Assembly (NCBI GenBank): GCA_963749155.1
Contig: CAVVLO010000002.1
Coordinates: 1,504,001 to 1,568,000 of the forward strand
Length of the DNA stretch: 64,000 nt
Direction: 5' to 3'
Source of the DNA: an uncultured Armatimonadia bacterium
GTDB taxonomy: Bacteria > Armatimonadota > Zipacnadia > CAVVLO01
Made by a program: the position numbers and the translations under genes. The notes below the pieces were generated by a model. It searched no databases and had not been told where the DNA came from. It was given only the letters and a program-made list of their open reading frames with translations. Position 1 is the stretch's first letter, and the number at the start of each line of letters is the position of its first letter. Positions 8,823-55,475 of this stretch are shown here, piece after piece.

Positions 8823-10804
8823 ATGCGTGGTTCGAACCTGCTGCTTGTGGTGATGTTGATGATGGTAACGATTACAGGGCTTGGCTGTGCGGCCCAGGTT
8901 ACTCTGACTGGCACTGTAACCTCTGCCGCGACGGGAGAACCGCTGCACAAGGTCGAAGTCTGCGCGCTGCAGCTCGAAGGCGCAAGCGGCTTGCTGCTTC
9001 AGCCTTCCGCTACGGCTCGCACGGACAGCCAGGGGCATTTCACACTCAAGCTTGACGTTGCAGAACCTGCCCCAGGCAGTGTGGCGGTCTGGACGCGCAG
9101 CCTGCTCTACGCTAATGAGCTGTCCACTGGTACCAGGCTGGCCGCGAATATCGGCCCCACCCTTAACGAGGCCAGGCAAGCCGCGATCGACCTCGCCAAT
9201 CCTCCGAGCGAACTGACCTTTGCATTGGAGACTCGCTTCGGAGAAGAACATATCGTGATGCTGCCGATGGCTGACGGCACGAAGCTGGCCACCGATTACA
9301 TAACTCCGAAGGGAGAAGGCCCCTTCCCCAGCATCTTGCAGCGCACTCCGTACGGGCGCAGCCTCGAGGATGGTCTCTCGACCGGCCTGCTGGAGCAGGG
9401 CTATGCCATCATCTGCCAGGATCATCGCGGCCGGTTCGACAGCGAGGGCATCGGCCTGGCTTTCAAGGCCTGCGGTTGGGGCGAACACCAGGATGGCTAC
9501 GATACGGTGGAATGGATTGCCGCACAGCCCTGGTCCAATGGCAAAGTCGGCACTTTCGGCGCCTCGGCGGGTGGGATTACGCAAAACCTGATGGCAGGCG
9601 CGGCGCCGCCCCATCTCACCTGTCAGGTAGTCCTCGTCGCTTCGGCCAATTTCTATGAGGATACGGCTTATCCGGGCGGCGCTTTCCGCAAGCAGATGGT
9701 CGAAGGCTGGCTCGCGGGCAACAATTTCCCCCCGAGACGCTGCAGGAGATGCTGGATCATCCTAACGAAGACGAGTATTGGGACGCCTACAACGTCGAGA
9801 AGCGCGCCCCCGAGATCACCGTGCCAAGCCTGCAACTTGGAGGCTGGTTCGATTGCTTCGAAAGCGGGCCAATCCGCAGCTTCCTCAGCCGACAGACGAA
9901 GGGTGGAGAAGGCGCCAGGGGCAACCAGCTCCTCATAATGGGTCCCTGGACTCACGGGGGGATGTTCGCCGCCAAGCAGGGCGAGTTGGAGTTCCCAGCT
10001 GCCGCCGTGGCCAGAGTCGACCTGATGCAACGCCTCAAGGACTTCTTCGCCTTCTGGCTGAAGGGCGAGCAGAACGACGTTATGGAAGCCTCCGTAACCT
10101 ATTACCAGATGGGCGCTTGTGGCGAGCCGGGCGCGCCCGGCCACGTGTGGCAGACCTCGCCCACCTGGCCTCCTCCCGCGCGCAGTCAGCGGTTCTTCCT
10201 CACGCCCGCGGGCGGATTAAGCAAAGAAGCGCCGACGGCGGAGGAGGCGCAGCTTTCGTATGTCTGTGACCCTGGCAACCCGGTGCCCAACCACGGGGGC
10301 CACAACCTGATACTGCCGGCAGGCTCTTTCGACCAGCGCGAGATCGAAGCGAGGGACGATGTCCTCTCCTTCACCACCGAGCCGCTGACCGAGCCGCTCA
10401 ACCTGACCGGGCAAGCGATCGCGAGGCTGTACGTGGCCTCGACCGCGGTGGATACTGACTTCGTGGTCAAGCTGTGCGATGTCTATCCCGACGGGCGTTC
10501 TATGCTCATCAGCGAGGGCGTGCTGCGGGCGCGCTACCGGGGCAGTTTCCAGTCGCCAGAGCTGCTGACTCCAGGGCAGGTCTATGAGCTGGAAGTGCCA
10601 CTCTGGGACACGAGCCTCGTCTTCAACACGGGGCACCGGATCAGGCTGGACGTGCAGAGCAGCGACTATCCGCGCTACGACGCCAACACTCAGACGGGCC
10701 TCCCCTATGGTCAGCCTGCGGAGCCGGTCGTCGCGACCAATACGGTCTTCTTCAACGCCGAACAGGCCTCGTGTCTGGACCTACCGGTGATGCTGGAGGA
10801 GTAA
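8823..10804 (+). CDS. Secreted CocE/NonD family hydrolase (frameshift in the C-run at ~9730)
   Basis: Signal peptide; RTPYG, QDHRGRFDSEG, GASAGG nucleophile motif, GGWFD, GPWTHG and C-terminal PepX_C-like DVQSSDYPRY. Confidence 0.9.
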
Positions 10805-10838
10805 GGACGCCTCAACGCCTCACATACAGGTGAGTGCA

Positions 10839-11820
10839 GTGAGCGAAAAAGACCAAGAGACCTCCTCGCCGCCGCTGGAGCGACCTCTCGCCCTGGGTGA
10901 GAGTGCCGGTTGGGTATGGGGCGGGGCTAGGGACGATCGCGCTGCTCTTCCTGCTGGCGGTGGCGATCGCCCGAACGCTGCCGATCCAACAAGGTCCAGT
11001 GCCAGGTGCATATCCGACGATGCGCGACACATACCTGGCCCAGTTGGCTCAGTTCATCGCGGTGCTGGGCCTGACGATCGGGTGCTTCAGCGGCGCCACC
11101 ATCGTGATGGCGCTTACGCACGAGCGCCGGTCGTTGCCCACGTTGCTGTTCGGAGCGCTCTTCCTGACGGTGGGCTTCGCGTACGCGGTCACCAGGCCCC
11201 AGCAACCCTATGGGCACCCCCTCGGCGTGCTGTGGACGGTGGAGCTGACCGCCCTGACGGCTTGGGTGCTGTTCGGCGTGGGCTCGAAGGTCTGGGCCGA
11301 ACGCCAAGAGGCCCGGCTACAGGCTCCTCCACGTTGGCGCTGGTTGCCGGGCTGGATGCGCATGGTCCTCGGCTACTTGGTCGGCTTGGCGCTGATAATA
11401 CCCGCGATCTACCTTGATGCCCTTCTGGCGTTGGGGCCAGGTCACGCCCTGTCAACCGCAGGATTCGGGCTGGTGAAGGCGGACCAGCCTGCTGGGTACC
11501 TGCTGGTCGGGTTAGGCCTAATTCTGCCACGGCTGCTGGTGGCGCCCCTCCTGGCCGCGATCGTCGCGCTGATCGCCGGTGGGCGGGGCGCGCTGCACGG
11601 CTTGCTGTTCGGGCTGATCCCCGCGAGCAATGCATACCCGGGCCTGGTCGGTTACGGCGTAGTTCGCTCCATCGGATCGGCCAAACTGCTGGGGCTCATC
11701 CTGGCCGCCCAGCCGCTAGTTCTGCTGCTCGCCTGCTGGGCCGGCGGCGCGCTGGCGGCGTGGCTTTTTACGAAGCGGAAGGCCAAGGCCGTTCCTGTTG
11801 AAGGTGACACTGATGACTGA
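10839..11820 (+). CDS. Multi-pass membrane protein, tandem paralog 1 (+1 indel near 10860)
   Basis: About 8 hydrophobic segments; 5' end nearly identical to the gene at 11813 except for one extra A; AGGTGA RBS before the GTG. Confidence 0.7.
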
Positions 11821-12754
11821 AACGCAACAAGAGCCTCCTCGCCGCCGTTGGAGCGACCTCTCGCCCTGGGTGAGGGTGCCGGTGGGGTATGGGGCGGCGC
11901 TAGGGACGATCGCGCTACTCTTCCTGCTGGCCGTGGCGATCGCCCGGGCGTTGCAGAGCAATAAGGGTGCAATGCCAGGGGCCTACCTGACGTCTCACGA
12001 CGTCTGGCAAGTGGCCCAGTTCGTGCTGGCGCTCGGACTAGCGGCAGGCTGCTTCGCCGGCGCCGCCGTGGTGCTGAGCCTCGCGGGGGGGCGCTGGTGG
12101 GTGCCCACGCTGGTGTTTGGGGCGGTATTCCTGATAGTGGGCTTTGTGTACGCAGTCACCAGGCCCTCTGAGGTCTACGTGGCCACACAGGTCGGAGGCT
12201 CCACGCGGCTCGCTTGGGACCCCCTCGCCGTGTTATGGGCGGTGGAACTGACCGCTCTGTCCGCCTGGCTGCTGTTCGGCGTGGCCGCGAAGACCTGGGC
12301 GGGGCGAGGCGCCGCGCGGCCACAGACTCCTCCGCGTTGGCGCTGGCTACCCGGCTGGGCACGGGTGGCGTTGGGCTACCTGGTGGGACTGGCGCTGATA
12401 ACACCCGCGATCGGCCCGGTGGCGCTGCTGGTTGCGGGGCTCGGGGACGCGCTGGTTGAGGTAGGTGCGATTCTGCCCAACCTGCTGGTGGCGTCTCTCC
12501 TGGCCGCGATCGTCGCCTGGGTCGCAGGTACAAACGGCGCGGTGCACGGACTGCTCTTCGGCCTGCTCCCGGCGAGCGCCGTGGGGCGGGGGCTGGCAGG
12601 CTACGAGGTAGGCTTCCCCCTGGGGTGGTCGGTCAGCGCCCTGGGACTGATCTTTGCCGCGGAACCGCTGCTCGTGCTGCTGGCCTGCTGGGCCGGCGGC
12701 GCGCTGGCGGCGTGGCTGGCAGGGCGTAAGCAGCTAAAGCCTGCTTCAGGCTAG
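11813..12754 (+). CDS. Multi-pass membrane protein, tandem paralog 2
   Basis: Shares WSDLSPWVRVPVGYG, VLWxVELTAL, PPRWRWLPGW and LLACWAGGALAAWL with the upstream gene. Confidence 0.75.
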   Translation: MTETQQEPPRRRWSDLSPWVRVPVGYGAALGTIALLFLLAVAIARALQSNKGAMPGAYLTSHDVWQVAQFVLALGLAAGCFAGAAVVLSLAGGRWWVPTLVFGAVFLIVGFVYAVTRPSEVYVATQVGGSTRLAWDPLAVLWAVELTALSAWLLFGVAAKTWAGRGAARPQTPPRWRWLPGWARVALGYLVGLALITPAIGPVALLVAGLGDALVEVGAILPNLLVASLLAAIVAWVAGTNGAVHGLLFGLLPASAVGRGLAGYEVGFPLGWSVSALGLIFAAEPLLVLLACWAGGALAAWLAGRKQLKPASG

Positions 12755-12822
12755 TAGTGGCCCTTCGAGGTGGCTTAATATACTGTTGCTCATTATTAAT
12801 AATATTTAACCTTGCAAAGCTA

Positions 12823-12870
12823 GTGACAAAGCTGGGGCGGGGGGGATAGACTGTTAAGTGAAGCAAAGTT
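12823..12870 (+). promoter_or_regulatory. Putative promoter of pilin cassette 1 with a G7 tract in the spacer
   Basis: GTGACA-18 nt (G7 at 12839-12845)-TAGACT, followed by TGTTAAGTGAAGCAAAGTT shared with cassette 2. Confidence 0.5.
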
Positions 12871-12893
12871 CTGGCAGTGTTGGAGGTCGCACG

Positions 12894-13522
12894 ATGACCC
12901 AAGCCCAGAGTCTTTGGAAAGAACGCCTCCCCCTGTGGCGATTCAGCCTGCTGCTCGCTCTGCTTATTGTTTCTCTCATCGTATTCGCGCGCGTCTCCAA
13001 GGCCACTCCAGTGAACCCCCTGTTCAAGCTTAAGCAATTCGTGCTGGAGCAGCAGCAGCAGCACCAGCAGAAGCTGGACCTCGAGCGCGACCCCCTTCCT
13101 GGCCAGCCAAGGCCCGAAGGCCTGACCCAGTGGCTCGCGCAGCAGGGGCTCGCGGGCAAGCCGCTGGCGCTGCTGATGACAGGCTCCTGCAGCGAGTGCG
13201 CCACAAGCTATCTCAAGGCCTGGAGCGACTTCGCAGCGCTGCCCGGGCGCCGGCTGTGGTGGTCTTCGCGGCCAGTGAAGAAGCCCAGGTCGAGGTTTTC
13301 CTCGCAAAACACCCTGAGATCAACCTGAAGCTGAAGGCGGCGCCATATCCGGGGCTGGAGAAGGAGCTCAACGCCCTCTTCCGGCCCCGCGCCTACTACT
13401 ACGGGGCAGATGGCGCGCTGGGGTGGCTTCAGGGCGACCACACCGACCCCTGGGCGACGCTGGCAGAACTGAAGGAACGGCTCGGACTGGCCGGGGAGGG
13501 CAAGACTAATGCGCAGAATTAG
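12894..13522 (+). CDS. Membrane-anchored thioredoxin-fold (CSEC) protein, cassette 1 (frameshift near 13250)
   Basis: N-terminal TM, GSCSECA and LFRPRAYYY (cis-Pro-like); the intact paralog at 17380 defines the correct frame. Confidence 0.65.
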
Positions 13523-14215
13523 AGGTTTCACCCTTATCGAATTGTTAATCGTGATGGCCATCCTGACCCTGCTGGCGGGCATCCTGTTCACCGTCTTCGC
13601 CGGCGCGAAGGAGAAAGCCCGTCAGACCCACTGTATGAATAACCTCAAGCAGCTCGGGGCCGCGATACTGCTATATAGGCAGGATTATGATGGGGGCTGG
13701 CCGGACGATGCGAAGGCCGTCTACCCGGCCATGTTTCAAGCAAAGAGGTCTTCGCGTGCCCCGACGATGGGGCAACTCGCAGTTTGCGACAGACAGCGGA
13801 GACTATTGGGGGGGTGTATTCGTCCTACGGCAGGTGTGGGGGAGACTTTCTGGGAATACTCTCGGGACGAAGCTTGCGAGTCGCTGCCACACCAGCTCTA
13901 GACTGTGTTGCTCGCGCCTGTTTCCTCGCAGAGAGGCATTTTGCTGACAGGTACCCGTTACTGCGCTGCTACAACCACCTCTTCCCGGGGAGTGATTGCG
14001 GCTCGAGGGAATTCGACAGGTTACGTGAAGCAACCGAACCGAGTGGGATTGTGCCCACTCTCCTACAAGATGGCAGTGTAAAGTTTGAGATAGCACCCTC
14101 ACCCTACGGATCCAATCCCCTGGCGGGACACGTGGCAGCCCACATTACATCAAAAGAGTGGCTCGATGTACTGGACTATTACAAGCAGCAGCTTGGGTGT
14201 GAAGAGGAGGATTGA
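13509..14215 (+). CDS. Prepilin-type N-terminal cleavage/methylation domain protein A (frameshift near 13730)
   Basis: RG|FTLIELL class III signal, KARQTHCMNNLKQLG, CPDD, HLFPG, QDGSV and C-terminal KQQLGCEEED. Confidence 0.85.
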
Positions 14216-14216
14216 G

Positions 14217-14921
14217 ATGGCAAAGCGAGGTTTCACCCTTATTGAGCTGCTGATAGTGATGGCCATCTTGACCCTGCTGGCGGGCATACTGTTCACTGTC
14301 TTCGCCGGCGCGAAGGAGAAAGCCCGCCAGACCCACTGTATGAACAACCTCAAGCAGCTTGGGGCAGCCATCCTGCTGTATAAGCAGGATTACGACGGGG
14401 GGTGGCCGGAGATCGCATGGCAGACCTATCCTCAGTATGTTAGCGACAAAGCGCTCTTTGTCTGCCCAGATGACGGCACAGCATCCAGCATCCGGAAGTC
14501 CTTCGAAACTCGGTATGGCGCCTATGAATCGTATGCAAGAGGTGGCGGTGATTTCCTCTACATACTCTCCGGAAGGGGTCTCCGGTCAGCGGCCATCCCA
14601 GGAACGAGCTGCTCATCACAGGCCATATTCTTGGCCGAGTGGCATTTTCGTGACAGATACCCGGTGCTCAGGTGTTTGAGTCATCTCTTCCCGGGTAGTG
14701 ACTGTGACTCGCGTGCGTTCGACAAGCTGATGGACGCAGCGGAAGTACGGGGCGTGATACCGACGCTTGCGCAGGATGGGAGCGTTGCATTGGAAGTCGT
14801 GCCGTCTGGCTATGGGCCGAACCCGCTGGCAGGGCATGCAGCCGCGCACCTGATGACCAAGGAATGGGCGGATGTGCTGAGAAGCTACAAGAAGCAGCTT
14901 GGGTGTGAAGAGGAGGATTGA
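14217..14921 (+). CDS. Prepilin-type protein B (intact)
   Basis: MAKRG|FTLIELL with the same motif series as A; GAGGAGG RBS inside the end of A. Confidence 0.9.
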   Translation: MAKRGFTLIELLIVMAILTLLAGILFTVFAGAKEKARQTHCMNNLKQLGAAILLYKQDYDGGWPEIAWQTYPQYVSDKALFVCPDDGTASSIRKSFETRYGAYESYARGGGDFLYILSGRGLRSAAIPGTSCSSQAIFLAEWHFRDRYPVLRCLSHLFPGSDCDSRAFDKLMDAAEVRGVIPTLAQDGSVALEVVPSGYGPNPLAGHAAAHLMTKEWADVLRSYKKQLGCEEED

Positions 14922-14922
14922 G

Positions 14923-15631
14923 ATGGCAAAGCGAGGTTTCACCCTTATCGAGTTGCTGATTGTGATGGCCATCTTGACCCTGCTGGCGGGCATCTCTGTT
15001 CACTGTCTTCGCTGGCGCGAAGGAGAAAGCCCGCCAGACCCACTGTATGAATAACCTGAAACAGCTCGGCGCGGCGATATTGCTATATAAGCAGGACTAC
15101 GATGGGGGGTGGCCTAAGGATCTGGCCCGGATATACCCGCATTATGTGAACAGCTCTGCAGTGTTCGTATGCCCTGACGCGGTTGCGACTGCTGAGGAGC
15201 GAGAAGCTGCCCACCGCAGGAAGGGACTCTTCGTGTCGTATGAGCGCCTTGGGGGCTCCGCCTTGGGTGCGCTGTCCGGCGAGCAACTTGACCGGGTTCT
15301 TCGAACTCCTCAGTCGAGCTGTCTGGACAAGGTCGTCGCCTATGTGACGAACGATGTCGCCAGCAGGCTCCCGGTCCTGTGGTGCGTGGATCACCTGCTC
15401 CCTGGCGAGAACTGCATGCGCACAGGCTTCAGGGAGCGCGTGCTCGAGAACAACATGCGGGGGGTGATGCCGACACTTGAGCAGGATGGGAGCGTGATAG
15501 TAGTGGCAGTGCCGACGCGGTACGATCCCAACCCCTTCGCGTTCAACGCGATGGCTAGAATGACAGGGCACGAGTGGCAGCGCTTAGTCGACTCGTGGAA
15601 AAAGCAGCTTGGTTGTGAGGACGAGCAGTAA
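14923..15631 (+). CDS. Prepilin-type protein C (+1 indel near 14995)
   Basis: 5' end nearly identical to B; continues as ORF 15047-15631 with CPD, HLLPG, QDGSV and KQLGC. Confidence 0.85.
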
Positions 15632-15655
15632 GCTTGCGAATTGGAGGTGAGACAA

Positions 15656-15994
15656 GTGAGAAGACTGTCTGTTGCAATAATGCTGTGGTTAGTCCTTCTG
15701 GCGCTGGTGTTGGGCGTGCTCGCGCAGCTTGTGCTTGCGGACGACTGCAGCGGCGAGCATCAGTACTGCGGATCCTGGTACGACACGTGCTGCGCGAGGG
15801 GCTGCACGGACGTGACACTGGGAGCATGGCAGTGGGACTATTGTTACGAGCTATACATCCAGGTCGGCCCGATGTGGTATCCAGGCGCCTGCACCAGGTA
15901 CAAGAAAACCGCGGAATACTACAACTGCCCGGACGGTGAGCCGCCCTGCACTCTCACAAAGTGGGAGTTCGAGATCTGGGGAGAGTGCGACTGA
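15656..15994 (+). CDS. Small secreted Cys-rich protein (10 Cys in the predicted mature part)
   Basis: GGAGGTGA RBS and GTG start; signal peptide ending VLA|DDC; rich in Cys, Trp and Tyr. Confidence 0.7.
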   Translation: MRRLSVAIMLWLVLLALVLGVLAQLVLADDCSGEHQYCGSWYDTCCARGCTDVTLGAWQWDYCYELYIQVGPMWYPGACTRYKKTAEYYNCPDGEPPCTLTKWEFEIWGECD

Positions 15995-16008
15995 GCCTCA
16001 AAACAAGA

Positions 16009-16035
16009 GCAGGGGCAAGTTGCCCCTGCACCCCC
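16009..16035 (-). repeat. GC-rich palindromic REP-like element, may also act as a terminator
   Basis: Minus strand GGGGGTGCAGGGGCAACTTGCCCCTGC with a perfect 10-bp stem; related copy at 25160. Confidence 0.45.
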
Positions 16036-16062
16036 GGAAGGTCGAACTGACTCAGCTTGGTA

Positions 16063-17124
16063 CTAAGTCTCCCCGAACTGTTTGAGGCCCGCGTAGCGCT
16101 TCTTGATATGTCCAAGGCGCTCGCGGATGGGCAGGTTGTAGGGGCATTTCTCCTCGCACTGGCCGCAGTCGGAGCAGTCCTCGGCTTTCTTCTCCAGCGC
16201 CCCGTATTCGCTCAGGAAGTAGGGCCACTCGTAGCCGTAGGCCCGGATGCGGTCGTAGAGCTGCATAATCGCGGCCACGTCCAGCCCCTCGGGGCAGTCA
16301 CGGCAATAGCCGCAGTTGCGGCAGATGGTCTCGCCCATCCAGGTGGCGCGGTCGAGGGCTTCTTTCAGCTCTTCCTCGGTGAGCTTGCGGAAGGTGTTGG
16401 AGGCCTCGAGGGCCTGATCGATGTCACGTTTGCAGTTGGCGCCCGCGAGCGCCACGTTGATATTCTTGTTGGCCAGCACAAACCACCAGGCATGCAGAGG
16501 ACTGACCGCGTGGTCCGCATCGCGGAAGAACATCCCGCCTGAGAGCGGCTTCATCGCGATGAAGGCCATATCGCGCTTGCGCGCCTCGGGGATAACTTCC
16601 AGCTCCGCGTCGTGGATGGCGAGGTTGTAGGTCGCCAGCACCGAGGAGAACTCTTCCAGCCGGATGCACTTGAGGAGGGTGGCGTTATCGTGGCCCGTCA
16701 CGCCCAGGTGCCGCACGACGCCCTGGTCCTTCATCCGCCTGAAAGCCGCCATCGCGCCGTTTGCGGCGGTGACCATCGAGAAGCGCTCGGGCGTCGAGAT
16801 ATCATGAAGCTGCCAGACGTCTAGATAATCGGTATTGAGGGCCGTAAGGCTCTCCTGCAGCTCGCGCATCGCCCCGTCATAGTCGCGGGCCATCGTTTTA
16901 GTGGCCAGCACGACTCGGCCCCTGCGACCTTCGATGGCAGCGCCGATCTTGGCCTCGCTGTCCCCGTAGGCGCGCGCGGTGTCGAGATACTCGATTCCCT
17001 TGTCCAGGGCGTAACTGACCACCTCGACGGCCTCATCGAAGCCCATCTGGATGATCGGGATGCCCCCGAAGCCAATCTCCGCCAGGTATTTGCCGGTCGG
17101 TTCGTGAACACGTTGCTTGAGCAA
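16063..17124 (-). CDS. Aldo/keto reductase with C-terminal Fe-S dicluster domain
   Basis: IGFGGIPI, LDTARAYGDSE, LATKT, DYLDVWQLH, AMKPLSGG, CRNCGYC..CP and CSDCGQCEEKCP. Confidence 0.92.
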   Translation of the reverse strand: MLKQRVHEPTGKYLAEIGFGGIPIIQMGFDEAVEVVSYALDKGIEYLDTARAYGDSEAKIGAAIEGRRGRVVLATKTMARDYDGAMRELQESLTALNTDYLDVWQLHDISTPERFSMVTAANGAMAAFRRMKDQGVVRHLGVTGHDNATLLKCIRLEEFSSVLATYNLAIHDAELEVIPEARKRDMAFIAMKPLSGGMFFRDADHAVSPLHAWWFVLANKNINVALAGANCKRDIDQALEASNTFRKLTEEELKEALDRATWMGETICRNCGYCRDCPEGLDVAAIMQLYDRIRAYGYEWPYFLSEYGALEKKAEDCSDCGQCEEKCPYNLPIRERLGHIKKRYAGLKQFGET

Positions 17125-17171
17125 GGTCGCTCCCCCCCAGAGGCTGCGCGAATCTTCCAGGTCACATCTTC

Positions 17172-17194
17172 TGCCTGGGAAGAGGGCTTCCTGC
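17172..17194 (+). repeat. 23-bp direct repeat, left boundary of cassette 2 (overlaps a SigH-like promoter of the AKR gene on the minus strand)
   Basis: TGCCTGGGAAGAGGGCTTCCTGC versus TGCCCGGGAAGAGGGCTTCCTGC at 20567-20589. Confidence 0.75.
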
Positions 17195-17308
17195 TAGTGA
17201 AATAGAGGACCTTGTCGGCAGTGGGAAGGGGCTTTCGATGGCCAGGTATTGGTTCGAGTGTTAATATGGATTTAGCGGGTATTGATGCCACTCAACCTCC
17301 TTAAGGGC

Positions 17309-17357
17309 TTGACAAAGTTGGGAGGGGGGGGGCTATATTGTTAAGTGAAGCAAAGTT
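17309..17357 (+). promoter_or_regulatory. Putative promoter of pilin cassette 2 with a G9 tract in the spacer
   Basis: TTGACA-19 nt (G9 at 17324-17332)-TATATT, then the 19-nt leader block shared with cassette 1. Confidence 0.6.
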
Positions 17358-17379
17358 TCTCAGCTTTGGAGGTCGCACG

Positions 17380-18093
17380 ATGACCAGGTTCCAGGGCCTT
17401 TGGAAGCCAAGCATCCCCGTCTGGCGATTCAGCCTGCTGCTCGTGCTGTTCCTGCTCTCCTTCATCATTTTTACGAACGTTTCGCAAGCTAACCCCACCA
17501 ACCCCGTCGCGAAGCTCAAGCTGCTGCTGGGCGACAGGTACGAGCAAAACCGGATAGAAGCCCGACTCGCGGAGGATCCCAAGACCGGCCAAAAAGCGCC
17601 GCTGCAGCTCACCAAGTGGCTGGAAAAGCAGGGACTGGCGGGTAAGCCCGTGGCTGTGCTGATGATCGGCGCTTGCAGCGAGTGCGCCGCAAGTTACCTC
17701 AAGGCCTGGAGCGACTTCGCCGCGAAGCCGGGCGCGCCGGCGGTGGTAGTGTTCACACTTGGGGAGGAAGCCCAGGTGAAGGCCTTCCGCGCCAGGCATC
17801 CGGAAGTGAAGCTGACGCTGGCCCCCGAGCCTGAGGGCTATGTCCCTGACCCCAGTGCTGCGTTTGCTGCGCGCTTGGGGGCCAAGCCTTTCACCTGGAA
17901 ACCGCGCATCCAGCCCTATCAGGGAATCGGCAAGGACCTAAACGCGGTGTTCAGGCCACGCCTCTATTATTATGAGACAGACCGGGCGCTCGAGTGGCTT
18001 CAGCCGCGACAGGAAGCCCCCCAAGTGACGCTTGAGGGCTTCGAGCAGCACCTTGGGCTGGGTAAGGAGGGAGCGGCAGATGCGCAAGATTAG
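17380..18093 (+). CDS. Membrane-anchored thioredoxin-fold (CSEC) protein, cassette 2
   Basis: GGAGG RBS, TM segment, GACSECAASYLKAWSDF and VFRPRLYYY; paralog of 12894. Confidence 0.7.
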   Translation: MTRFQGLWKPSIPVWRFSLLLVLFLLSFIIFTNVSQANPTNPVAKLKLLLGDRYEQNRIEARLAEDPKTGQKAPLQLTKWLEKQGLAGKPVAVLMIGACSECAASYLKAWSDFAAKPGAPAVVVFTLGEEAQVKAFRARHPEVKLTLAPEPEGYVPDPSAAFAARLGAKPFTWKPRIQPYQGIGKDLNAVFRPRLYYYETDRALEWLQPRQEAPQVTLEGFEQHLGLGKEGAADAQD

Positions 18094-18799
18094 AGGATTC
18101 ACCTTGGTTGAGTTGCTTATCGTGATAGGCATCCTCGCGTTGCTGGCGGGCATCCTGTTCAGCGTCTTTGGCGGGGCCAAGGAGAAAGCCCGTCAGGCCC
18201 AGTGCCTCAGCAACCTCAAGCAGATCGGTATGGCGGCGTTGCTCTACAAGCAGGATTTCGACGGCGAGTTCCCCCTCCGGATGGAGGCGCTCTTCCCCTC
18301 CTATGTCTCGTCCGCGGCGGTCTTCGTCTGCCCTGACGATGCCTCGTCGGGGGAGTGGCGCGAGAAGCTGGCCAAGGTACGCGGGGTTTACACCTCCTAT
18401 ACCCAGTTCGTGGACCCGCTGTATCAGATGAGCGGCCAAATCAGGCTGCGGCCAGAGGCGACCTGCAGCGAGCTCGCCTTCCAGTCGGCCCTCCGCAAGC
18501 TGTGGCCGAAGCTGCCGATCGCCACCTGCTGGGGCCACCTGCTGCCTGGGCGCTATTACGACGCCTATGGACCCGGGATGTTCGAGTTCCAGCAGGCTCT
18601 GCTGTTAAACGACACACCGTCGGTAATGCCCAGAGTTGAGCAGGATGGCAGTTGCAGGTTTATGAAGGTGCCGCAGGAGTGCGCCTATATTGATGTCATC
18701 ACCCCGTACGGCATCGCAGGGGTCACCTTTCACGACTTTAGGGTGCTGGTGCGGGAAGAGACTGCGGCGTTATGTGACGGCGAAAGCGATGGCGGTTAA
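18080..18799 (+). CDS. Prepilin-type protein D (intact)
   Basis: MRKIRG|FTLVELL, KARQAQCLSNLKQIG, CPDD, CWGHLLPG and EQDGSC. Confidence 0.9.
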   Translation: MRKIRGFTLVELLIVIGILALLAGILFSVFGGAKEKARQAQCLSNLKQIGMAALLYKQDFDGEFPLRMEALFPSYVSSAAVFVCPDDASSGEWREKLAKVRGVYTSYTQFVDPLYQMSGQIRLRPEATCSELAFQSALRKLWPKLPIATCWGHLLPGRYYDAYGPGMFEFQQALLLNDTPSVMPRVEQDGSCRFMKVPQECAYIDVITPYGIAGVTFHDFRVLVREETAALCDGESDGG

Positions 18800-19544
18800 A
18801 GGCGGACGGACCGGCCTGGCCCTGGTCGAGTGGCTGTTAGTGGTTGCCCTTCTCGTGCTGCTGGTCGGCACAGTCTACAGCCTGGCTGGTGGCGCCAGGG
18901 AGAAGCGCGCGCCAGTCGCAGTGCCTCGGCAACCTGGGGCAGATCGGCGCCGCGGCGCTGCTCTACAAAGCGGACTGGGATGGCCATCTGCCAGCTCAAC
19001 TGGAGGCACTCTTTCCGCAGTATGTCGCCTCGGAGTCAGTGTTCGTCTGCCCCAGCGATGTCGCGCCAGAGGGCTGGCGAACCGAGCTCCGGGAAGTGCG
19101 AGGCGTCTACACTTCCTATACCCAGTTTTCAGATGAGCGTTTCTGTCTAGGGGAGGGTGTGCGCATCTCACCAAGCATGCCCTATCAGCAGCTTGCCCAG
19201 GATTATGCTGTACAAGAGATCATGCCCAGGCTACCCATCGCCACCTGTTGGAGCCACCTGCTGCCGGGGCGCTATTACAACCCCTACGACCTAAAGCTGC
19301 AGACCTTCCAGAGAACACTATGGCGCTGCCGAACCCCTTCGGTTATGCCACGAGTGGATCAGGACGGGAGTTGCCGGTCTGATGAGGGTCCCCGAGGAAT
19401 GCCAGTATACCGCTGTCGTTGCGCTCTATGGCTGGGCGGAGATGGACCACCTGGCGTTTGACGCCTTGGTGAGGGAGAAGGTCAAGAACAGGGTCAAGTC
19501 TGGCGCGCGGACCGAGTCGGACCACAAGGGAGGTGATAACTTAA
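18789..19544 (+). CDS. Prepilin-like protein E (three apparent +1 frameshifts; possible pseudogene)
   Basis: RTG|LALVEWL, QSQCLGNLGQIG, CPSD, CWSHLLPG and DQDGSC; breaks at ~18906, ~19379 and ~19499; corrected stop abuts the next ATG. Confidence 0.7.
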
Positions 19545-19847
19545 ATGAGACTAGTGAACAGGAAGAGATACCTGTCGCTGTGCCTTGCGCTGGCAGTTGT
19601 CGCGGTTGTGGCATTGGGGCTACTAGGCGTCGCAGCCATAGTTTGGGCGGACGTTTGTCCACCGTTCGAGAGCGACTGTGCGGAGCGAGACTGCACGGTG
19701 CTACTCAACCCGCCGCCACTACTCTGGGAAACGTTCTGTGAGGATCAGGTTAGGTCTCTCTGCACTCGCCTTCGCTCGACGTGTATACACAGCCTTGGGA
19801 GATATGTATGCGAAGTAAGGCCGACTTGGCCCTGGTCGAGTGGCTAG
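19545..19847 (+). CDS. Small secreted Cys-rich protein (7 Cys in the predicted mature part)
   Basis: GGAGGTGA RBS; basic N-region and hydrophobic core ending VWA|DVC. Confidence 0.65.
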   Translation: MRLVNRKRYLSLCLALAVVAVVALGLLGVAAIVWADVCPPFESDCAERDCTVLLNPPPLLWETFCEDQVRSLCTRLRSTCIHSLGRYVCEVRPTWPWSSG

Positions 19848-20544
19848 TTGTCATTGCCATCCTCGTGCTACTGGCCGGCACGGTCTACAGCCTGGCCGGG
19901 GGCGCGAGGGAGAAGCGCGCGCCAGTCGCAGTGCCTCGGCAACCTGGGGCAGATCGGCGCTGCGGCGCTGCTCTACAAGGCGGACTGGGACGGCCATCTG
20001 CCGGTCCAACTGGAGGCGCTCTTTCCCCAGTATGTCGCCTCGGAGTCGGTCTTCCTCTGCCCCAGCGATGCCGCGCCAGAGGGCTGGCGAACCGAGCTCC
20101 AGGGACGTGCGAGGCGTCTACACTTCCTATACCCAGTTTTCAGATGAGCGTTTCTGTCTAGGGGAGGGTGTGGTGGTCCCACCGAGCTATCCGTATGAGC
20201 AGCTTGCTCTGGATTATGCCGTACAAGAGATCTCTCCGAGACTCCCGATCGCGACCTGTTGGTGCCACCTGCTGCCGGGGCGCTACTACAACCCGTATGA
20301 CCTGAAGCTCAGAGCTTTCCAGAGGGCGCTTTGCGTTGCGATACCTCCTCGGTGATGCCGCGAGTGGATCAGGACGGCAGTTGCCGGCTGATGCGGATCA
20401 GCGAGGAGCGCGAGTTCACTGCTGTCGTTGCGCTCTATGGCTGGGCGGGGATGGACTTGGTCGAGTTTAACGCGCTGAGTGCGAGAGAAGGCCAAGATCA
20501 CGGTCAAGCTTGACCGGAAGAACGATAAAGGCAAGACGCCGTAA
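19808..20544 (+). CDS. Prepilin-like protein F, recent duplicate of E (four apparent frameshifts; possible pseudogene)
   Basis: MRSKAD|LALVEWL; long near-identical DNA blocks shared with E; breaks at ~19916, ~20101, ~20333 and ~20478. Confidence 0.65.
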
Positions 20545-20566
20545 GGACTTGCGGCCCGCTGGCCTT

Positions 20567-20589
20567 TGCCCGGGAAGAGGGCTTCCTGC
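20567..20589 (+). repeat. 23-bp direct repeat, right boundary of cassette 2
   Basis: One mismatch to 17172-17194. Confidence 0.75.
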
Positions 20590-20634
20590 CCGAGTGGCTT
20601 GCGCTTCTCGTGATTGCAGCTTAGACTGCCTGTT

Positions 20635-21450
20635 ATGGAAGCAGCCCAGGAGCAACCTCGCGCGCAGACTACTGGCAGCCAGTGGGCGATACTGGCGACA
20701 GTTGGATACGGAGTTTACAGCCTGCTGGCGGGTCAGCTCGCGCCGGCGCCGGTCGTCGGCGGATTGCTCTACAATCCCGCAGCCTCGATTGTCACCCTGA
20801 TGCTGGTGCTGATTGGCTTCTCCTTCTGGCGGACGTCGTGGGGACTTGAGATCGGCCTCACCCTGGCGGCGACTGCGCTGGTGGTGCTTGCGTCGGTTAA
20901 AGGAGCGCCTCCAGCCGGCGATGCGGCACTGGTGGTAGCCGCGGCCAGTTTCGGCAAGCTGCTCGCGCGGCTCTTCCGCGAACCCAACATCATACTGCCG
21001 GCCGTGATGGTTGCGGCGACAGTTGACCTCCTCAGCGTCTACTTCGGCCCGACCGGGCATATCGTGAGGCATATGCCCGGCCTGCTTGCGGCAGGCACGA
21101 CGATGGCAGGGCAGGCAGGGGCCACAATTGGCTCCGGGGCGGGGAAGATCGTCCTCTCGCCGGTCAATGTTGGCGCGGGCGACCTCGTGTTTATGGGGAT
21201 GTTCCTGGGGGTTGCGATACGCCTGTCACTCGACGTCCCAGCGACGGTGCTGGCCTTGTTCCTGGCCGCCTCGACAGGTATAATCCTGGCGGCGGTGCAG
21301 CCAATCCCGATACCTGGACTGGTGCTCATCGGCAGCGCGGCGCTCATCGCCAATCGCAGTTTTATCAAGCTCTCTGGAGAAGAGAAGCGTTCCGTGATGG
21401 TGCTTGGGATTGTGCTCGCACTCCTTCTAGCCTGGGCCCTGCTGCGCTAA
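20635..21450 (+). CDS. Membrane protein with GxGD intramembrane aspartyl protease motifs (presenilin/SPP-like)
   Basis: Multiple TMs; TVDLLSV (first Asp), NVGAGDLVF and PIPGL (PAL-like) occur in presenilin order. Confidence 0.6.
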   Translation: MEAAQEQPRAQTTGSQWAILATVGYGVYSLLAGQLAPAPVVGGLLYNPAASIVTLMLVLIGFSFWRTSWGLEIGLTLAATALVVLASVKGAPPAGDAALVVAAASFGKLLARLFREPNIILPAVMVAATVDLLSVYFGPTGHIVRHMPGLLAAGTTMAGQAGATIGSGAGKIVLSPVNVGAGDLVFMGMFLGVAIRLSLDVPATVLALFLAASTGIILAAVQPIPIPGLVLIGSAALIANRSFIKLSGEEKRSVMVLGIVLALLLAWALLR

Positions 21451-21518
21451 AGGCGCCAGGGCTCCGCCTCAGGCTGAATCAGTTTTTCCCGGTGGGTTTT
21501 TCGTTGGAGGGATAGCTC

Positions 21519-24009
21519 GTGGATGACCGGTATGAGCCGCAAATTATAGAACCCAAATGGCAGCAGCGCTGGCAAGAGTGGGGCCTGTTCCGCGTGGGCG
21601 AGGAAGTGCCCGTCGAGAGCAAGTTCTACTACCTGGATATGTTCCCCTATCCCAGCGGCAAGATGCATATGGGCCATGTGCGCAACTACATCATCGGCGA
21701 TGTGGTCGCGCGTTATCATCGGATGAAGGGCCAAAATGTGCTGCATCCGATGGGCTGGGATGCCTTCGGATTGCCCGCGGAGAACGCGGCTATCAAGCAC
21801 AATACTCATCCCTCGGACTGGACGCGCCAGTGCATCACCGAGATGCGCGCGCAGTTCAACCGGCTGGGCATCAGCTTCGACTGGGAGCGCGAGGTAACGA
21901 CCTGCGAGCCGGACTACTACAAGTGGACGGAGTGGATGTTCGTCCAGTTTTTCAAGGCTGGCCTGGCTTACAAGAAAGAAGCGCCGGTCAACTGGTGTCC
22001 CGACTGCCAGACCGTGCTCGCCAACGAGCAGGTCGTGGGCGGGGCTTGCGAGCGGTGCGATGCCGTCGTCGAGAAGAAGAACCTTTCGCAGTGGTTCTTC
22101 AAGATAACCGATTACGCCGACAGGCTGCTGGCCGACCTGGCCAAACTTGCCGACTGGCCCGAGCGCGTGAAAGTGATGCAAGAGGCCTGGATTGGGCGCA
22201 GCACGGGCGTCGAGATCCTTTTCCGCCTCGCCGAGACAGGCGAGGAGCTGCCTGTCTTCACCACCCGGGTGGATACCATCTTCGGCGCCACCTATGTGGT
22301 GCTGGCAGTAGAACATCCCTGGGCTGACCGACTGGTTACGGCGGACCGCAAGTCAGAGGCGGAAGCCTTTACCAACGACGTGAAAGCCCAGACCGACTTC
22401 GAGCGCGTCGCAAGCGACAAGGACAAGCGCGGCTTCTTCACCGGCAGCTATGCCATCAATCCGGTGAACGGCGAAGAGATACCGATCTACCTGGCCGATT
22501 ATGTGTTGATGGAATATGGCACCGGCGCAATTATGGCGGTGCCCACCCACGATGAGCGAGACTTCGTCTTTGCGCGCAAGTATGGGCTGCCGCTGCGAGT
22601 GGTCATCCAGCCTGAGTGCGAAGTGCTGGATCCCTCCTCGATGGAAGGCGCTTACACCGGCGAGGGGCTGCAGATCAACTCCGGTCAGTTCGATGGGCTC
22701 TCCAACGAACAGGGCAAGGTCCAAATCGCCGACTGGATGGAAGCCGAAGGCATCGGGCGACGCAAAGTAAACTATCGCCTGCGCGACTGGTGTATCTCTC
22801 GCCAGCGCTATTGGGGCGCGCCAATCCCCATTATCTACTGTGACAAATGTGGCACTGTGCCAGTGCCGGAGGAGCAGCTTCCTGTTGTGCTGCCGCGCGA
22901 TGTGGCCTTCACCGGGGAAGGAGGCTCGCCTCTTGCGAAAGTGGAGAGCTTCGTAAACACCACCTGCCCGACCTGTGGCGGCCCGGCGAAGCGCGAGACC
23001 GACACGATGGACACCTTCGTGTGCAGCTCGTGGTACTTCCTGCGTTATGCCGACCCCAAAAACACCGAAGCGGCTTTCGATCGCGCCAAAGTGGATTACT
23101 GGCTGCCCGTAGACCAGTACGTCGGCGGCATCGAGCATGCGACGATGCACCTGCTTGTATGCGCGTTTCTTCACGAAGGTGCTGCACGATTTGGGGTATC
23201 TCGGTTTCGATGAGCCTTTCACCCGGCTGTATACCCAGGGGATGATCTACAAGGACGGCGCCAAGATGTCCAAGTCGAAGGGCAACGTGGTGACGCCCGA
23301 GGTCATCCAGGACAGATATGGCGCTGATACGGGCCGGATGTATATCCTGTTCGTGGGGCCGGCCGACCAGGACGCCGAGTGGAACGACAAGGGCGTAGAA
23401 GGCATCGCCCGGTTCCTCAGGCGGCTGTGGCGCACCTATAGTCTGCATGTGGGCAAGTTCGACAAAGACTGGTCAGGCAAACTGGCAGGGGCTGAAGTCT
23501 CCGAAGGCGCGCTGGCGGTCAGGCGCAAGCTGCATCAGACGCTGGCCAAAGTGAACGATGACATCCAGAGCTTCCACTTCAACACCTCGGTGGCGGCGCA
23601 GATGGAATTGTTGAATGTGCTTCAGCCCTGGGCCGATGGACTCACCGAGCCGACTGAAGTTGACCTGGCGGTGCTTTCCGAGGCGCTTGAGCAGTTCGCA
23701 CGGTTGCTGTCGGTGTTCGTGCCGCACCTGGCGGACGAGTTGTGGGAGACTCTTGGCTTCGAAGGCAGCCTGCTCGAGCAGGCCTTCCCGATGGCTGATC
23801 CGGCCCTTCTGGTACTGGACACGGTCGAGGTGCCAGTTCAGATAAATGGCAAGGTGCGCGGCGTGGTAACCGTGCCTGCTGGCGCCAGCGCCGAGGAGAT
23901 GCAGGCCATCGCTCTGGCGGACGAGAAACTGAAGGACCGGTTCGAAGGCGTGACCATCGTCAAGGCCTTCGCGAAGCCCGGCCAGATGGTGAGTTTCGTT
24001 GTGAAGTAA
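21519..24009 (+). CDS. leuS: Leucine--tRNA ligase (+1 indel near 23157)
   Basis: [19 protein letters not shown] editing domain, [26 protein letters not shown] and KMSKSKGN. Confidence 0.98.
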
Positions 24010-25544: not shown

Positions 25545-27323
25545 ATGCCTCTGGAGGCGCCCGAAATGGCCGAGAGATTCCGCCTGGAGCGTTTTGCCCG
25601 TCGCAATGCCAACTACCTCGAACAGATGGTCGATTCTCACGGCCTGCCCTACTTCAACACCTTCTGGACCGACCCAGCCGAGTGTGTCCATGACTGGCCC
25701 GACTACGGCGACGTCAACAGCCGCCAACTCGAAGCCGCCGTTATGTCGCGTTATATGACAGGCGTGCCTGTTCGGAGCGAGCCGACAATGCGCGCGACCG
25801 CCAGGCAGTATCTCAAGCTGGGCGGTGATGGGCTGCTTTGGCGGCCGGAGACCCCCTATACGCGCCTGGGCGCCGACCTCGGCGACAACACGATGACCCT
25901 CGGCGCCTTCACAGCCCTCACACAAGATGAGCCCGGCAGCGAGTGGCGCGGCATCGGGCAGGCCTTGGTCGATCGTCTCTGGGAGCTGGCCACCAAACGC
26001 GACGATTATGCCTTCTTCTCCGGTAACTACTGGTCGCCCGAAGGCTGGACCAGCCACGGCGATCAGCCTGGCGGCTACTGGGAGTTCTTCTTCGTGCAGC
26101 CGCTGCTCAACTGGGCCGAGGCGACAGGGAGCGAAGTGGCGATTGACCTGGGCCGGCGTCTCGCAATCGCGAGCCTTGAGCATACCACCAGCTTCTCGCC
26201 TGAGGGCCGCTTCGTCGGTCATGTGCACGGTCATCTGCGCGGACTGGCGGGGTTCGCTCATCTGGGACTGCTGGACAACCGGCCCGAGTTGCTGCAGATT
26301 GCGGCCAACGGGATAGACTTCATAAACCGCCAGAGCACCAATTTCGGCTTCGTACCGGAGCTTTCGGAGCGCAAAGACGACCTTATCGGCTGCGAGACCT
26401 GCATCCTGATGGATTATCTCGACACGATGATAATCCTCGGGCTGAACGGTTATCCCCAGTACTTCGAACTGGTCGAACGCACGGTGCGTAACCATCTGGC
26501 CGAGAGCCAGGCCACCGACTTGTCCTGGCTGGTAGAGGATAACAACCGCGAGGATACCGACCAGATAACCTGGCGCAATCTGCGGAGCCGGCTTTCCGGT
26601 TGTTACGCGGGTTGGAGCTCGCCCAACCATATCCTCGCCTATCGCGAAGATTTGCCCTTCACCTGGACGAAGCATATCGACCAGCATCCAATCTACATCG
26701 GCAAGACGCGCGCTTTCCAGCACTGCTGCGGCGGGTCGGGCACCAAGGCCTTCTACGAGGCGTGGCTTGCAATCGCTACCTTCGAGGAGGGGCTGCTCTC
26801 GGTCAACCTGCATTTCGATCGTGAGACGCCCGAGGCCAGCATCCGGTGTGACAAGCCTTACAAGGGCGAGACCCGGGTGACGCTGAAGCAGGCCTGTTCA
26901 GTAAGGTTGCGCCTGCCCGAGTGCGCAAGCGAAGTCAGCCTGACTGTCGAGGGCGAGCCTGCCAACTGGCATCGAGAAGGCCTCTGGGCGGTGCTCGAAG
27001 GCCAACTACCCGCCGGGGCGCGTATCGTGATGAGCCATCCTCTGCCCGCAAAGACCGAAACCATCTTCATCGGCAATGAAGGCTTCAAGCAATATGAATA
27101 CGAAGTGACCTGGAAGGGCGATACGGTGGTGGCCTGCCTCGGCAAGACCGAGCACAAGCGCGGCTACACCGCCCTGATGGACGCCGAGGTCGAGCTTTTT
27201 TATGGAGAGGACGGCCCAGGGCCACTCTACCAGCGGCAGGAAGTCGTCGAGACTTCCGAAGCACCGGCTTCCGACCCGCTGCCTTTTGTCGAGACCAGCC
27301 CTGTCAAGCTTTACTGGAGGTAA
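25545..27323 (+). CDS. GH127/GH146-like glycoside hydrolase (Zn-Cys type)
   Basis: GCETC and FQHCC match the ETC and CC zinc ligands of GH127; C-terminal PY.GE...LRLPE beta domain. Confidence 0.65.
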   Translation: MPLEAPEMAERFRLERFARRNANYLEQMVDSHGLPYFNTFWTDPAECVHDWPDYGDVNSRQLEAAVMSRYMTGVPVRSEPTMRATARQYLKLGGDGLLWRPETPYTRLGADLGDNTMTLGAFTALTQDEPGSEWRGIGQALVDRLWELATKRDDYAFFSGNYWSPEGWTSHGDQPGGYWEFFFVQPLLNWAEATGSEVAIDLGRRLAIASLEHTTSFSPEGRFVGHVHGHLRGLAGFAHLGLLDNRPELLQIAANGIDFINRQSTNFGFVPELSERKDDLIGCETCILMDYLDTMIILGLNGYPQYFELVERTVRNHLAESQATDLSWLVEDNNREDTDQITWRNLRSRLSGCYAGWSSPNHILAYREDLPFTWTKHIDQHPIYIGKTRAFQHCCGGSGTKAFYEAWLAIATFEEGLLSVNLHFDRETPEASIRCDKPYKGETRVTLKQACSVRLRLPECASEVSLTVEGEPANWHREGLWAVLEGQLPAGARIVMSHPLPAKTETIFIGNEGFKQYEYEVTWKGDTVVACLGKTEHKRGYTALMDAEVELFYGEDGPGPLYQRQEVVETSEAPASDPLPFVETSPVKLYWR

Positions 27324-27327
27324 CAAG

Positions 27328-28128
27328 ATGACTGACAAGCAAGTTACCAGAGAAAGTTTCCTCAAGAACGGCCTGCTGGCCGTATTCGGGCTGGTGGCGG
27401 GCGCACAGCTTGTGGCTTCGGCCGCTGAAGAGCCGGCAGCCAATCCGCAGGACTATCCCAAGCCGGAGGACCTGGTGCCCTTCCGTTTTGTGCAGGGCGC
27501 ACCTGATATTCCGCCGCTGGATACACCAATCATCTGGGCGCGCGAGCAGCTTAATCCCCAGTTCTGCACCCATGAGCTGCTGTCACTGGTGATGGAAGAG
27601 CGCCATGAAAACAGTTTTCCCTGGGTGCAGTATAACCAGCTCACCACCAGCCACACTGGCGGTGATGCGGTGGTGTTCTATTCGCGCCTCCACAAAGAAG
27701 GGCCTGGCTGGTCCTGCGGCAACCACAGCGAGGTGTTCTCCACCAACTGGGGCGTCGGCATCGGGGTGAACATCGAGGTCAGCAACAATTACGAGGGCGA
27801 CGAGGGCTTTAATGGTATCTATGGCGCAGTCATCCAGGGCTTCGGCAAGCGCCAGCCCAAGTCGGGAGTGCTGATTACTGGCGAGCTTGGGTTCGTCAAC
27901 GGCATCGAGCTGGACGCAAAGCATGGCACTGGTATCAACCTGGACTGCGAGACTGACGTCGGCATCAATCTGCATGACAACCGGCTGCGTCTGAATGAAG
28001 GCGCCTGGCTGGACCTCGACGCCGAAGGGCAGGTCCGGCTGCGCTATTTCGAGGGCAATCTCGAGTTCTGGAACGGCGAAGCTCGCGTCGCGCATCTGCC
28101 AATGGCCGGCGAAGATCACGCCCTGTAG
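27328..28128 (+). CDS. Exported hypothetical protein with a Tat-like leader
   Basis: GGAGG RBS; TRESFLK followed by a hydrophobic core and ASA cleavage site. Confidence 0.7.
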   Translation: MTDKQVTRESFLKNGLLAVFGLVAGAQLVASAAEEPAANPQDYPKPEDLVPFRFVQGAPDIPPLDTPIIWAREQLNPQFCTHELLSLVMEERHENSFPWVQYNQLTTSHTGGDAVVFYSRLHKEGPGWSCGNHSEVFSTNWGVGIGVNIEVSNNYEGDEGFNGIYGAVIQGFGKRQPKSGVLITGELGFVNGIELDAKHGTGINLDCETDVGINLHDNRLRLNEGAWLDLDAEGQVRLRYFEGNLEFWNGEARVAHLPMAGEDHAL

Positions 28129-28138
28129 GAGGCCCCTT

Positions 28139-28357
28139 ATGGAAGAAAAACAGCTTTCAGCAGCCCAGATCGACTTCTTGCGCAAGCTCTACTCGGAGTT
28201 CTCGGCGGCTCAGAAAGCCCTCAACGAGTTCACCCGGTATCTGCTTGAGGAACATGGCCTGACTGGTGAACAAGCCAGATGGCAACTGGCCCCGAGTCTC
28301 GACCGGTTTGTGATGCTGCCCGACCAGTCAGCCGAGGAGGATCCAACACCTTTCTAA
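28139..28357 (+). CDS. Small hypothetical helical protein
   Basis: AGGAGG RBS, 72 aa, in-operon position. Confidence 0.6.
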   Translation: MEEKQLSAAQIDFLRKLYSEFSAAQKALNEFTRYLLEEHGLTGEQARWQLAPSLDRFVMLPDQSAEEDPTPF

Positions 28358-28378
28358 TAGTCTCCTGGAGGTCCAAAG

Positions 28379-55473: not shown

Positions 55474-55475
55474 TA

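Follow-up and report, generated by a model that had tools for sequence, protein, structure and literature searches.

The window studied here, the whole 64,000-nt stretch of DNA that was analyzed, comprises positions 1504001–1568000 of contig C2 in the genome of an uncultured Armatimonadia bacterium (4.17 Mb, 7 contigs). It contains two cassettes in which the gene for a membrane-anchored thioredoxin-like protein (the redoxin) stands ahead of three prepilin-type genes (pilins A–C and D–F) and one gene for a small, Cys-rich protein with a signal peptide (the miniprotein). We give roughly even chances to the reading that these are two expanded copies of a phylum-wide module for the pilus-borne display or export of disulfide-rich miniproteins, equipped with a private isomerase.

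The module itself is real and conserved, is built from known protein classes, and is expanded and rearranging here. Its gene families are recognizable and recur in the same order, the Cys counts of its miniproteins are predominantly even, one of its pilins is modelled with a pilin fold, and its units have been exchanged, gained and lost between arrays and between strains. It is also apparently undescribed. An initial annotation of this DNA, made from its letters, had not recognized the architecture as a known system, and no account of the module was found in the literature searched, a search in which most subscription papers were not covered and supplements lay outside the scope.

Recurrence of the gene order across the phylum

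Searched against 400 other genomes of the phylum, a profile built from 8 close redoxin sequences matched 32, and the order redoxin, pilin, Cys-rich open reading frame (ORF) was seen in most of the 29 loci returned. Extended to 133 representatives and from these to an alignment of 116 sequences, the profile found matches in 256 of 401 genomes, many of them ordinary TlpA proteins. Regions were fetched among the 150 matches listed (there are 471 further matches): 80 strong ones from 55 genomes, hand-chosen from the top of the list with the rows of the host's own genome and some contig-edge or already included rows left out, and 20 weaker ones. A pilin gene lies directly after the redoxin in 60 of the 80 strong loci compared with 3 of the 20 weak ones, and the complete order redoxin-pilin-Cys ORF is found in 53 of the 80 strong loci, all from genomes other than the host's, compared with 1 of 20. 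The initial annotation had set as tests of its reading that this order recur across genomes and that redoxin homologues be tied to pilins and Cys-rich ORFs, and both hold across the phylum. Seen from the pilins, a Cys-rich ORF with a signal peptide follows 66 of the 82 full-length pilins having room downstream, and none of the 24 non-array pilin genes of the host genome has such a neighbour. Because related genomes are not independent, these locus figures are counts rather than statistical tests; the linkage of redoxin, pilin and miniprotein is far above chance. The mature part of the miniprotein has an even number of Cys in 58 of 68 cases (binomial p = 2e-9, a value computed over related loci that are not independent).

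Elsewhere in the phylum the usual unit pairs a single pilin with a single miniprotein, and a redoxin may be followed by up to four such pairs (repeated pairs in loci L074, L085, L092 and L108, four pairs in L109). Three pilins per peptide had been put forward as the module; that ratio holds in both cassettes of the window, but it represents a local expansion. Close pilins of different genomes share the Cys pattern of their miniproteins (for example in L069, L077 and L109), and miniprotein identity climbs with pilin identity, from 0.12 to 0.59 across bins, with the miniproteins diverging faster than the pilins across the phylum. A fourth gene, encoding an N-terminally membrane-anchored protein of about 200 aa, follows 46 of the 68 miniproteins (loci L056–L129); 33 of these 46 genes belong to one family without a Pfam match, and 5 and 4 to two others. 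In two loci of a single genome (L112 and L119 in G210), six pilins belonging to one clade flank the redoxins and no Cys-rich ORF was detected; this may be a variant of the module without a miniprotein. In the host's own class only weak redoxin matches occur among the matches listed, and the one that was fetched (L134) has no pilin, so that the distribution of the module is patchy.

Protein families and their rearrangement

The redoxins of cassettes 1 and 2 are 56% identical, and the description of both as transmembrane (TM)-anchored CSEC proteins is correct, as is the overlap of 14 nt, identical in length in the two cassettes, between the redoxin stop and the first pilin start. By themselves they match no Pfam or NCBIfam family, and single-sequence searches with redoxin 2 found only 4 near-relative proteins, none among 40 class relatives and nothing in the PDB, nor did any loci turn up when metagenomes were scanned with redoxin 2 or a miniprotein allele. 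The 116-sequence profile matches the solved structures of ResA, StoA, MPT53 and a thioredoxin-like protein (best E 5.6e-8), in agreement with the thioredoxin fold presumed at the outset, and 67 of the 116 family members match AhpC-TSA (PF00578) while 57 match Redoxin. The CxxC motif is invariant in 25 of 25 alignment rows, a hydrophobic helix at residues 14–37 forms the N-terminal membrane anchor, and the Pro of an FRPR motif aligns with the cis-Pro loop position of the family. A direct structure model of redoxin 2 from an 8-row alignment was uninformative (pLDDT 43).

Judged by sequence, the window redoxin is a TlpA/ResA-type subfamily. It resembles ResA, StoA, MPT53 (DsbE) and TlpA in its N-terminal TM anchor, its CxxC, the Pro at the cis-Pro position in most members and the profile matches to solved structures, but differs from them in its own signature (GxCxxC and NAxWxPRAY, with no Trp before the first Cys) and in its genomic ties, which are to genes for pilins and miniproteins and not to cytochrome c maturation or sporulation. 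The host genome, which encodes many exported pilin-like proteins containing Cys, has a DsbD/CcdA-type protein and yields no match to DsbB or VKOR. This fits a reducing or isomerising function better than that of an oxidase, and we infer that the redoxin probably acts as a reductase or isomerase.

The count of three prepilin-type genes per cassette stands, but A, C, E and F are frame-broken, and E and F lack the GFTLxE start. Pilin E begins with GLALVE, which keeps Gly and Glu5 and not Phe, and its tandem duplicate F (85.5% identical) begins with DLALVE, with no Gly at the cleavage site. Pilins A–D have a class III signal and match PF07963 and TIGR02532 above cut-off; A, B and D also match PF07596 (DUF1559/SBP_bac_10) at 28–30 bits, where the gathering cut-off is 23.3, over only positions 3–34 of the 268 in that profile. 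Between copies the first 60 residues of the array pilins are nearly identical and the heads differ. The heads have two near-invariant Cys (85 and 87 of 90 alignment rows) and the pattern [C/D]-x-x-H...[D/N]-G, where, among 90 pilins, the first position is occupied by Cys in 65 and by Asp in 23 and the His is kept in 84. The distance from His to DG is about 30 residues, compared with that of the H-X9-DG pattern, which is found in most other pilins of the genome and not in the intact array pilins. The alternation of Cys and Asp ahead of a conserved His suggests a metal or ligand site, one held in common with the H-X9-DG motif. The TIGR04294 model scores below cut-off for all three window heads tried, and likewise for all three controls.

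The predicted structure of pilin C (pLDDT 93) has a long N-terminal helix packed on a beta-sheet head. The five structures that match it best are without exception type IV pilins or pseudopilins (Z 5.1–6.6, rmsd 2.6–3.9, 86–103 residues aligned), among them PilA4 (Z 6.6, rmsd 3.3, 103 aligned) and EpsG (Z 6.3, rmsd 2.6, 90 aligned); a Foldseek search of the model against the PDB gave no match at E ≤ 0.001. In a quick tree the six intact array pilins form one clade (SH-aLRT 100), apart from most other pilin-like genes of the genome, and a profile of the pilin C-terminal part found no real relatives outside this genome.

By their class III signal and the PF07596 start that scores above cut-off, the array pilins are classed as a branch of the known DUF1559 family and not as a new pilin family. 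DUF1559 prepilin genes are expanded in Planctomycetes and are often flanked by signal-peptide genes, according to one report (PMC8567305). The array pilins differ from the family at large in matching its profile over the first ~30 of 268 positions, in the wider His-DG spacing, in forming their own clade, in having a C-terminal helix with an extra Cys, and in their partner, a miniprotein rich in Cys that comes with its own redoxin. One lineage also has prepilin-type genes in repeated cassettes, the Verru_Chthon cassettes (TIGR02596–TIGR02600). The window pilins give only weak N-terminal matches to these models, at 18.3 bits where the cut-off is 70, so none of TIGR02596–TIGR02600 is reached, and we know of no redoxin or miniprotein in the Verru_Chthon models.

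Each cassette has one Cys-rich gene with a signal peptide, as first described, with 10 Cys in mature miniprotein 1 and 7 in mature miniprotein 2. Six 112-aa alleles of miniprotein 1 from independent assemblies keep the reading frame and nearly all Cys, with 19 of 23 positions variable in residues 23–45 and 6 of 22 in the most conserved, N-terminal part. Since frame and Cys are kept while the centre varies, miniprotein 1 is supported as a real, diversifying gene. The ESM Atlas contained no usable match for it, and a complex prediction of the pilin C head with mature miniprotein 1 scored 0.01, with the fold of the partner uncertain and the controls not folded.

The cassette had been thought to occur twice, which proved too few: a larger third array lies at C1:702160–709690 (L001:6158–13690), with seven pilin-type genes, one of which has a non-cleavable-looking anchor, two redoxins (CTDC and CSEC) and two miniproteins. 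It shares with cassette 1 blocks of 90–96% identity in a different order. The body of pilin C is 98% identical in DNA to an intact copy on C1, and the miniproteins behind these two copies have signals that are 98% alike and a common Cys frame, with most of the mature DNA only 54% alike. An orphan 92-nt 3' end of miniprotein 1 (94.6% identical) stands at the end of the C1 array. Strains differ as well. Contigs of relatives from three runs join position 18729 to 19819, 19127 to 20240 and 19447 to 20479; these joints pass across miniprotein 2 and one of the E/F duplicates, and the relatives therefore carry a shorter cassette 2. Cassette content thus varies between strains, and together with the recombination traces these differences back the earlier characterization of the system as modular and polymorphic.

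Proposed mechanism and competing explanations

In the mechanism that we favour, the miniprotein would cross the inner membrane via Sec, and the membrane-anchored redoxin, drawing electrons from the DsbD/CcdA-like protein of the genome, would correct its disulfides as an isomerase or reductase. The pilins would be cut by the single prepilin peptidase and join a pilus or pseudopilus whose genes lie elsewhere: outside the cassettes the genome has one prepilin peptidase, two PilB-type ATPases and six matches to secretins, and no pilus assembly genes are present in either cassette or in the C1 array. The DUF1559-type pilins would act as minor-pilin adaptors that carry the miniprotein on a type IV filament to the surface, there to be displayed or released, with each pilin type serving a matching miniprotein type. 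The variable miniprotein would then be the working end, perhaps an adhesin, a receptor-binding tip or a released effector.

The model for this mechanism is the pairing of a type IVb minor pilin with a cognate exoprotein, TcpB-TcpF in V. cholerae and CofB-CofJ in enterotoxigenic Escherichia coli (ETEC), where a pilin gene travels with one Sec-exported protein, as described in PMC10120004; for the window this is a working model. No sequence or structural match to TcpB or CofB was seen in the array pilins, and the window cassettes differ from these systems in lacking assembly genes of their own, in having many paralogues per genome and in a Cys-rich cargo of 65–140 aa. For the dedicated oxidoreductase there are precedents in BdbA/BdbB beside sublancin and in DsbA for ComGC, and sublancin and enterocin F4-9 are both disulfide peptides encoded beside an oxidoreductase of their own (PMC6606811). 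Unlike these, the window peptides have a Sec signal and no double-glycine leader, and their genes are constantly accompanied by a pilin gene; nor do the window cassettes contain the ABC exporter, modifying enzyme or immunity gene of clusters for disulfide bacteriocins or peptides that are ribosomally made and modified after translation (RiPPs).

A wider form of the proposal, to which we give somewhat less than even chances, is that the loci make up an undescribed, phylum-wide class of pilus-delivered disulfide-rich miniproteins, in which a pilin serves as the adaptor for each type, the redoxin folds dozens of unrelated scaffolds with 8–18 Cys, and recombination between arrays, possibly with phase variation of promoters through G-runs, reshuffles the repertoire. 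If true, a cargo rule would be available for the first time for part of DUF1559, a huge family, along with a new natural library of disulfide scaffolds from bacteria. In several bacterial phyla, DUF1559-type prepilins rank with the most expanded of the families whose function is unknown; the module gives one of their branches a defined partner and a likely folding enzyme, making the role of the family testable with three small genes. It also points to bacterial disulfide-rich miniproteins as a large and unexplored resource with Cys frameworks of great diversity, and this genome shows the repertoire rearranging between loci and strains.

Several observations weigh against pilus-borne delivery by matched pilins. 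No oxidising pathway was found, the genome having no DsbB or VKOR match. The pairing of pilin and miniprotein is not strict, given that the nearly identical pilin C copies precede such different miniproteins, and most array pilins of this genome have no miniprotein of their own (one is present for 4 of 13 array rows). That similar pilins go with similar Cys patterns could follow from linkage alone, through co-inheritance of neighbours. The N-terminal third of the miniprotein is not more conserved across the phylum than the rest (0.34 compared with 0.39 and 0.38, over 24 pairs), unlike the export signal of TcpF, and on these values we rejected the idea that a conserved N-terminal export segment like that of TcpF is the rule throughout the phylum. 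The three fourth-gene families were searched for in this genome and not found, the structural Z-scores of pilin C fall in the middling range of the tool, and five of the ten cassette genes are frame-broken, with at least nine breaks in 7.7 kb.

Alternatively, the miniprotein may be a periplasmic or surface structural partner of the pilin (a chaperone, a cap or a subunit), with the pilin head as the true variable element, which duplication and recombination would diversify so as to vary a surface filament, for example against phage or grazers. The threefold excess of pilins over miniproteins here would agree with this, as would the near-identical first 60 residues with differing heads and the blocks of 90% DNA identity, which favour recombination, and the one genome with six such pilins around its redoxins and no miniprotein detected (L112, L119). 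However, across the phylum it is the miniprotein that diverges faster, and the one-to-one unit dominates, and we regard this explanation as unlikely. We are slightly more doubtful about a polymorphic competition module, in which the miniprotein would be a secreted peptide rich in disulfides and directed at bacteria or protists, matured by the redoxin and aimed or exported by the pilin, and the fourth gene found elsewhere would confer immunity. Dedicated oxidoreductases do adjoin disulfide bacteriocins (PMC6606811), the mature region of miniprotein 1 varies fast among its six alleles, its orphan 3' end is retained at the end of the C1 array, and a membrane-anchored gene follows most miniproteins. 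However, that fourth gene is mostly of one conserved family even where the miniproteins ahead of it are unrelated, which sets it apart from cognate immunity genes, and a search of this genome, which keeps at least one intact miniprotein, did not find it. Moreover, miniprotein 1 is acidic rather than cationic, and a Pfam search with the miniproteins gave no match to any toxin family.

Metal or cofactor scavenging, with the redoxin keeping Cys reduced, the miniprotein acting as a metallothionein-like chelator and the pilin binding metal through [C/D]-x-x-H...[D/N]-G, would account for the exchange of Cys for Asp in that motif with His retained, which fits a ligand better than a disulfide, and for the presence of a DsbD/CcdA-type donor with no DsbB or VKOR match. 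Against it, even Cys numbers with long variable loops between them fit disulfide folds, a hypervariable sequence is not expected of a chelator, and no metal transporter or regulator was seen beside the window cassettes, where no search was aimed at them; we consider it improbable. More improbable still, in our estimate, is that the arrays of this genome are decaying or partly mis-assembled clusters of paralogues, in which case the module may work elsewhere and not here. The breaks are certainly numerous: redoxin 1, pilin A and pilin C have one each, pilin E at least two and pilin F four, so that only redoxin 2, two pilins (B and D) and both peptide ORFs are open. Pilin F moreover lacks the cleavage-site Gly, and the genome is 5.9% contaminated. 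But contigs of relatives from four runs, which cover parts of the stretch, compensate at least five breaks in redoxin 1, pilin A and pilin F, at 13246 (3 of 4 runs), 13730, 19916, 20330 and 20477, three of the four in pilin F among them. Other assemblies contain redoxin 1, pilins B and D and miniprotein 1 with open frames. In the same window a frame break also splits leuS (21519–24009), and another a CocE/S15-type hydrolase gene (8823–10804), which points to indel errors in the assembly. Because contigs compensate some of the breaks, open versions exist and leuS is split too, assembly error is the likelier cause. Some decay may have contributed, since the density of breaks exceeds that in a small housekeeping control, where 1 of 6 genes was split. 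Both cassettes furthermore lie within a single 1.6-Mb contig with ordinary genes on either side.

Layout of the cassettes and neighbouring genes

Both cassettes are read from the plus strand, in the order R-P-P-P-C (redoxin 1, pilins A, B and C, miniprotein 1) and R-P-P-C-P (redoxin 2, pilins D and E, miniprotein 2, pilin F). Each opens with a homologous promoter and leader, a similarity proposed initially and borne out by reading of the promoters and by alignment. In cassette 1, promoter scan, alignment and sequence place at 12823–12893 a promoter-like site, GTGACA-18-TAGACT (12823–12852), with a G-run in the spacer, and a leader with a GGAGG ribosome site. The corresponding region of cassette 2 (17309–17379) has TTGACA-19-TATATT (17309–17339), with a run of 9 G in the spacer, and a leader; it was read from the sequence and the alignment, and the promoter scan, which allowed spacers of 16–18 nt, did not call it. 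The G-run spacers between –35 and –10 measure 18 nt (12829–12846), 19 nt (17315–17333) and, in the third array, 16 nt (L001 ~9140–9160), and that of cassette 1 is one letter shorter in contigs from two runs. These differences in length may reflect phase variation or homopolymer error.

Redoxin 1, the TM-anchored TlpA/ResA-type CSEC protein, occupies 12894–13522 with its one frame break near 13246, and is represented by open 209-aa versions elsewhere (P0002, P0003). It is followed by the DUF1559-type prepilin gene of pilin A (13509–14215), whose break near 13730 is restored in run X1, by that of pilin B (14217–14921), intact by its ORF and profile matches, with 234 aa and 6 Cys, and by that of pilin C (14923–15631), read from ORF and structure model, with a break near 14995 and the predicted type IV pilin fold. 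Miniprotein 1 (15656–15994), delimited by its sequence and alleles, consists of a Sec-type signal peptide of 28 aa and a mature part of 84 aa with the Cys frame C-6-C-6-CC-3-C-12-C-15-C-11-C-6-C-12-C. A hairpin scan placed a terminator-like hairpin at 16009–16029, without assigned strand, between miniprotein 1 and an aldo/keto reductase gene that lies between the cassettes on the opposite strand, convergent to miniprotein 1, and that we do not count as part of the system.

In cassette 2, redoxin 2 (17380–18093; ORF and profile) is intact, with 237 aa, CSEC and a 28-aa insertion relative to redoxin 1. Pilin D (18080–18799; profile matches and ORF) is likewise intact, with 239 aa and 7 Cys. The remaining genes were delimited from the sequence: pilin E (18789–19543), with its atypical GLALVE start, at least two frame breaks and an approximate 3' end; miniprotein 2 (19545–19847), with a signal peptide and a mature part of 65 aa; and pilin F (19808–20544), the tandem duplicate of E at 85.5% DNA identity, with four frame breaks and Asp for the cleavage-site Gly. 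Miniprotein 2 shows no sequence relationship to miniprotein 1. Its final 40 nt lie over the beginning of the pilin F gene, and because of this overlap and the odd Cys count in the mature part, the end of miniprotein 2 may be truncated or remodelled.

An Rfam search of 10500–21600 gave no match. Several long ORFs elsewhere in the window (25545–30905, 48719–49993, 53553–56336 and 61755–63589) have no Pfam match at E 1e-8. Just upstream of cassette 1, at 10897–11820 and 11813–12754 on the plus strand, lie tandem multi-TM paralogues that are 58% identical, have no Pfam or NCBIfam match and no further copy in the genome; with no homologue in the other loci, they were rejected as members of the system. 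The same applies to a gene downstream of cassette 2, which is single-copy in 41 of 41 good genomes of the class and was not found in any fetched cassette locus. It encodes, at 20635–21450 on the plus strand, a polytopic membrane protein with Asp motifs ATVD and GAGD and a PIPG motif, and resembles GxGD proteases of the signal-peptide-peptidase type (Atlas lead PF04258, 0.88).

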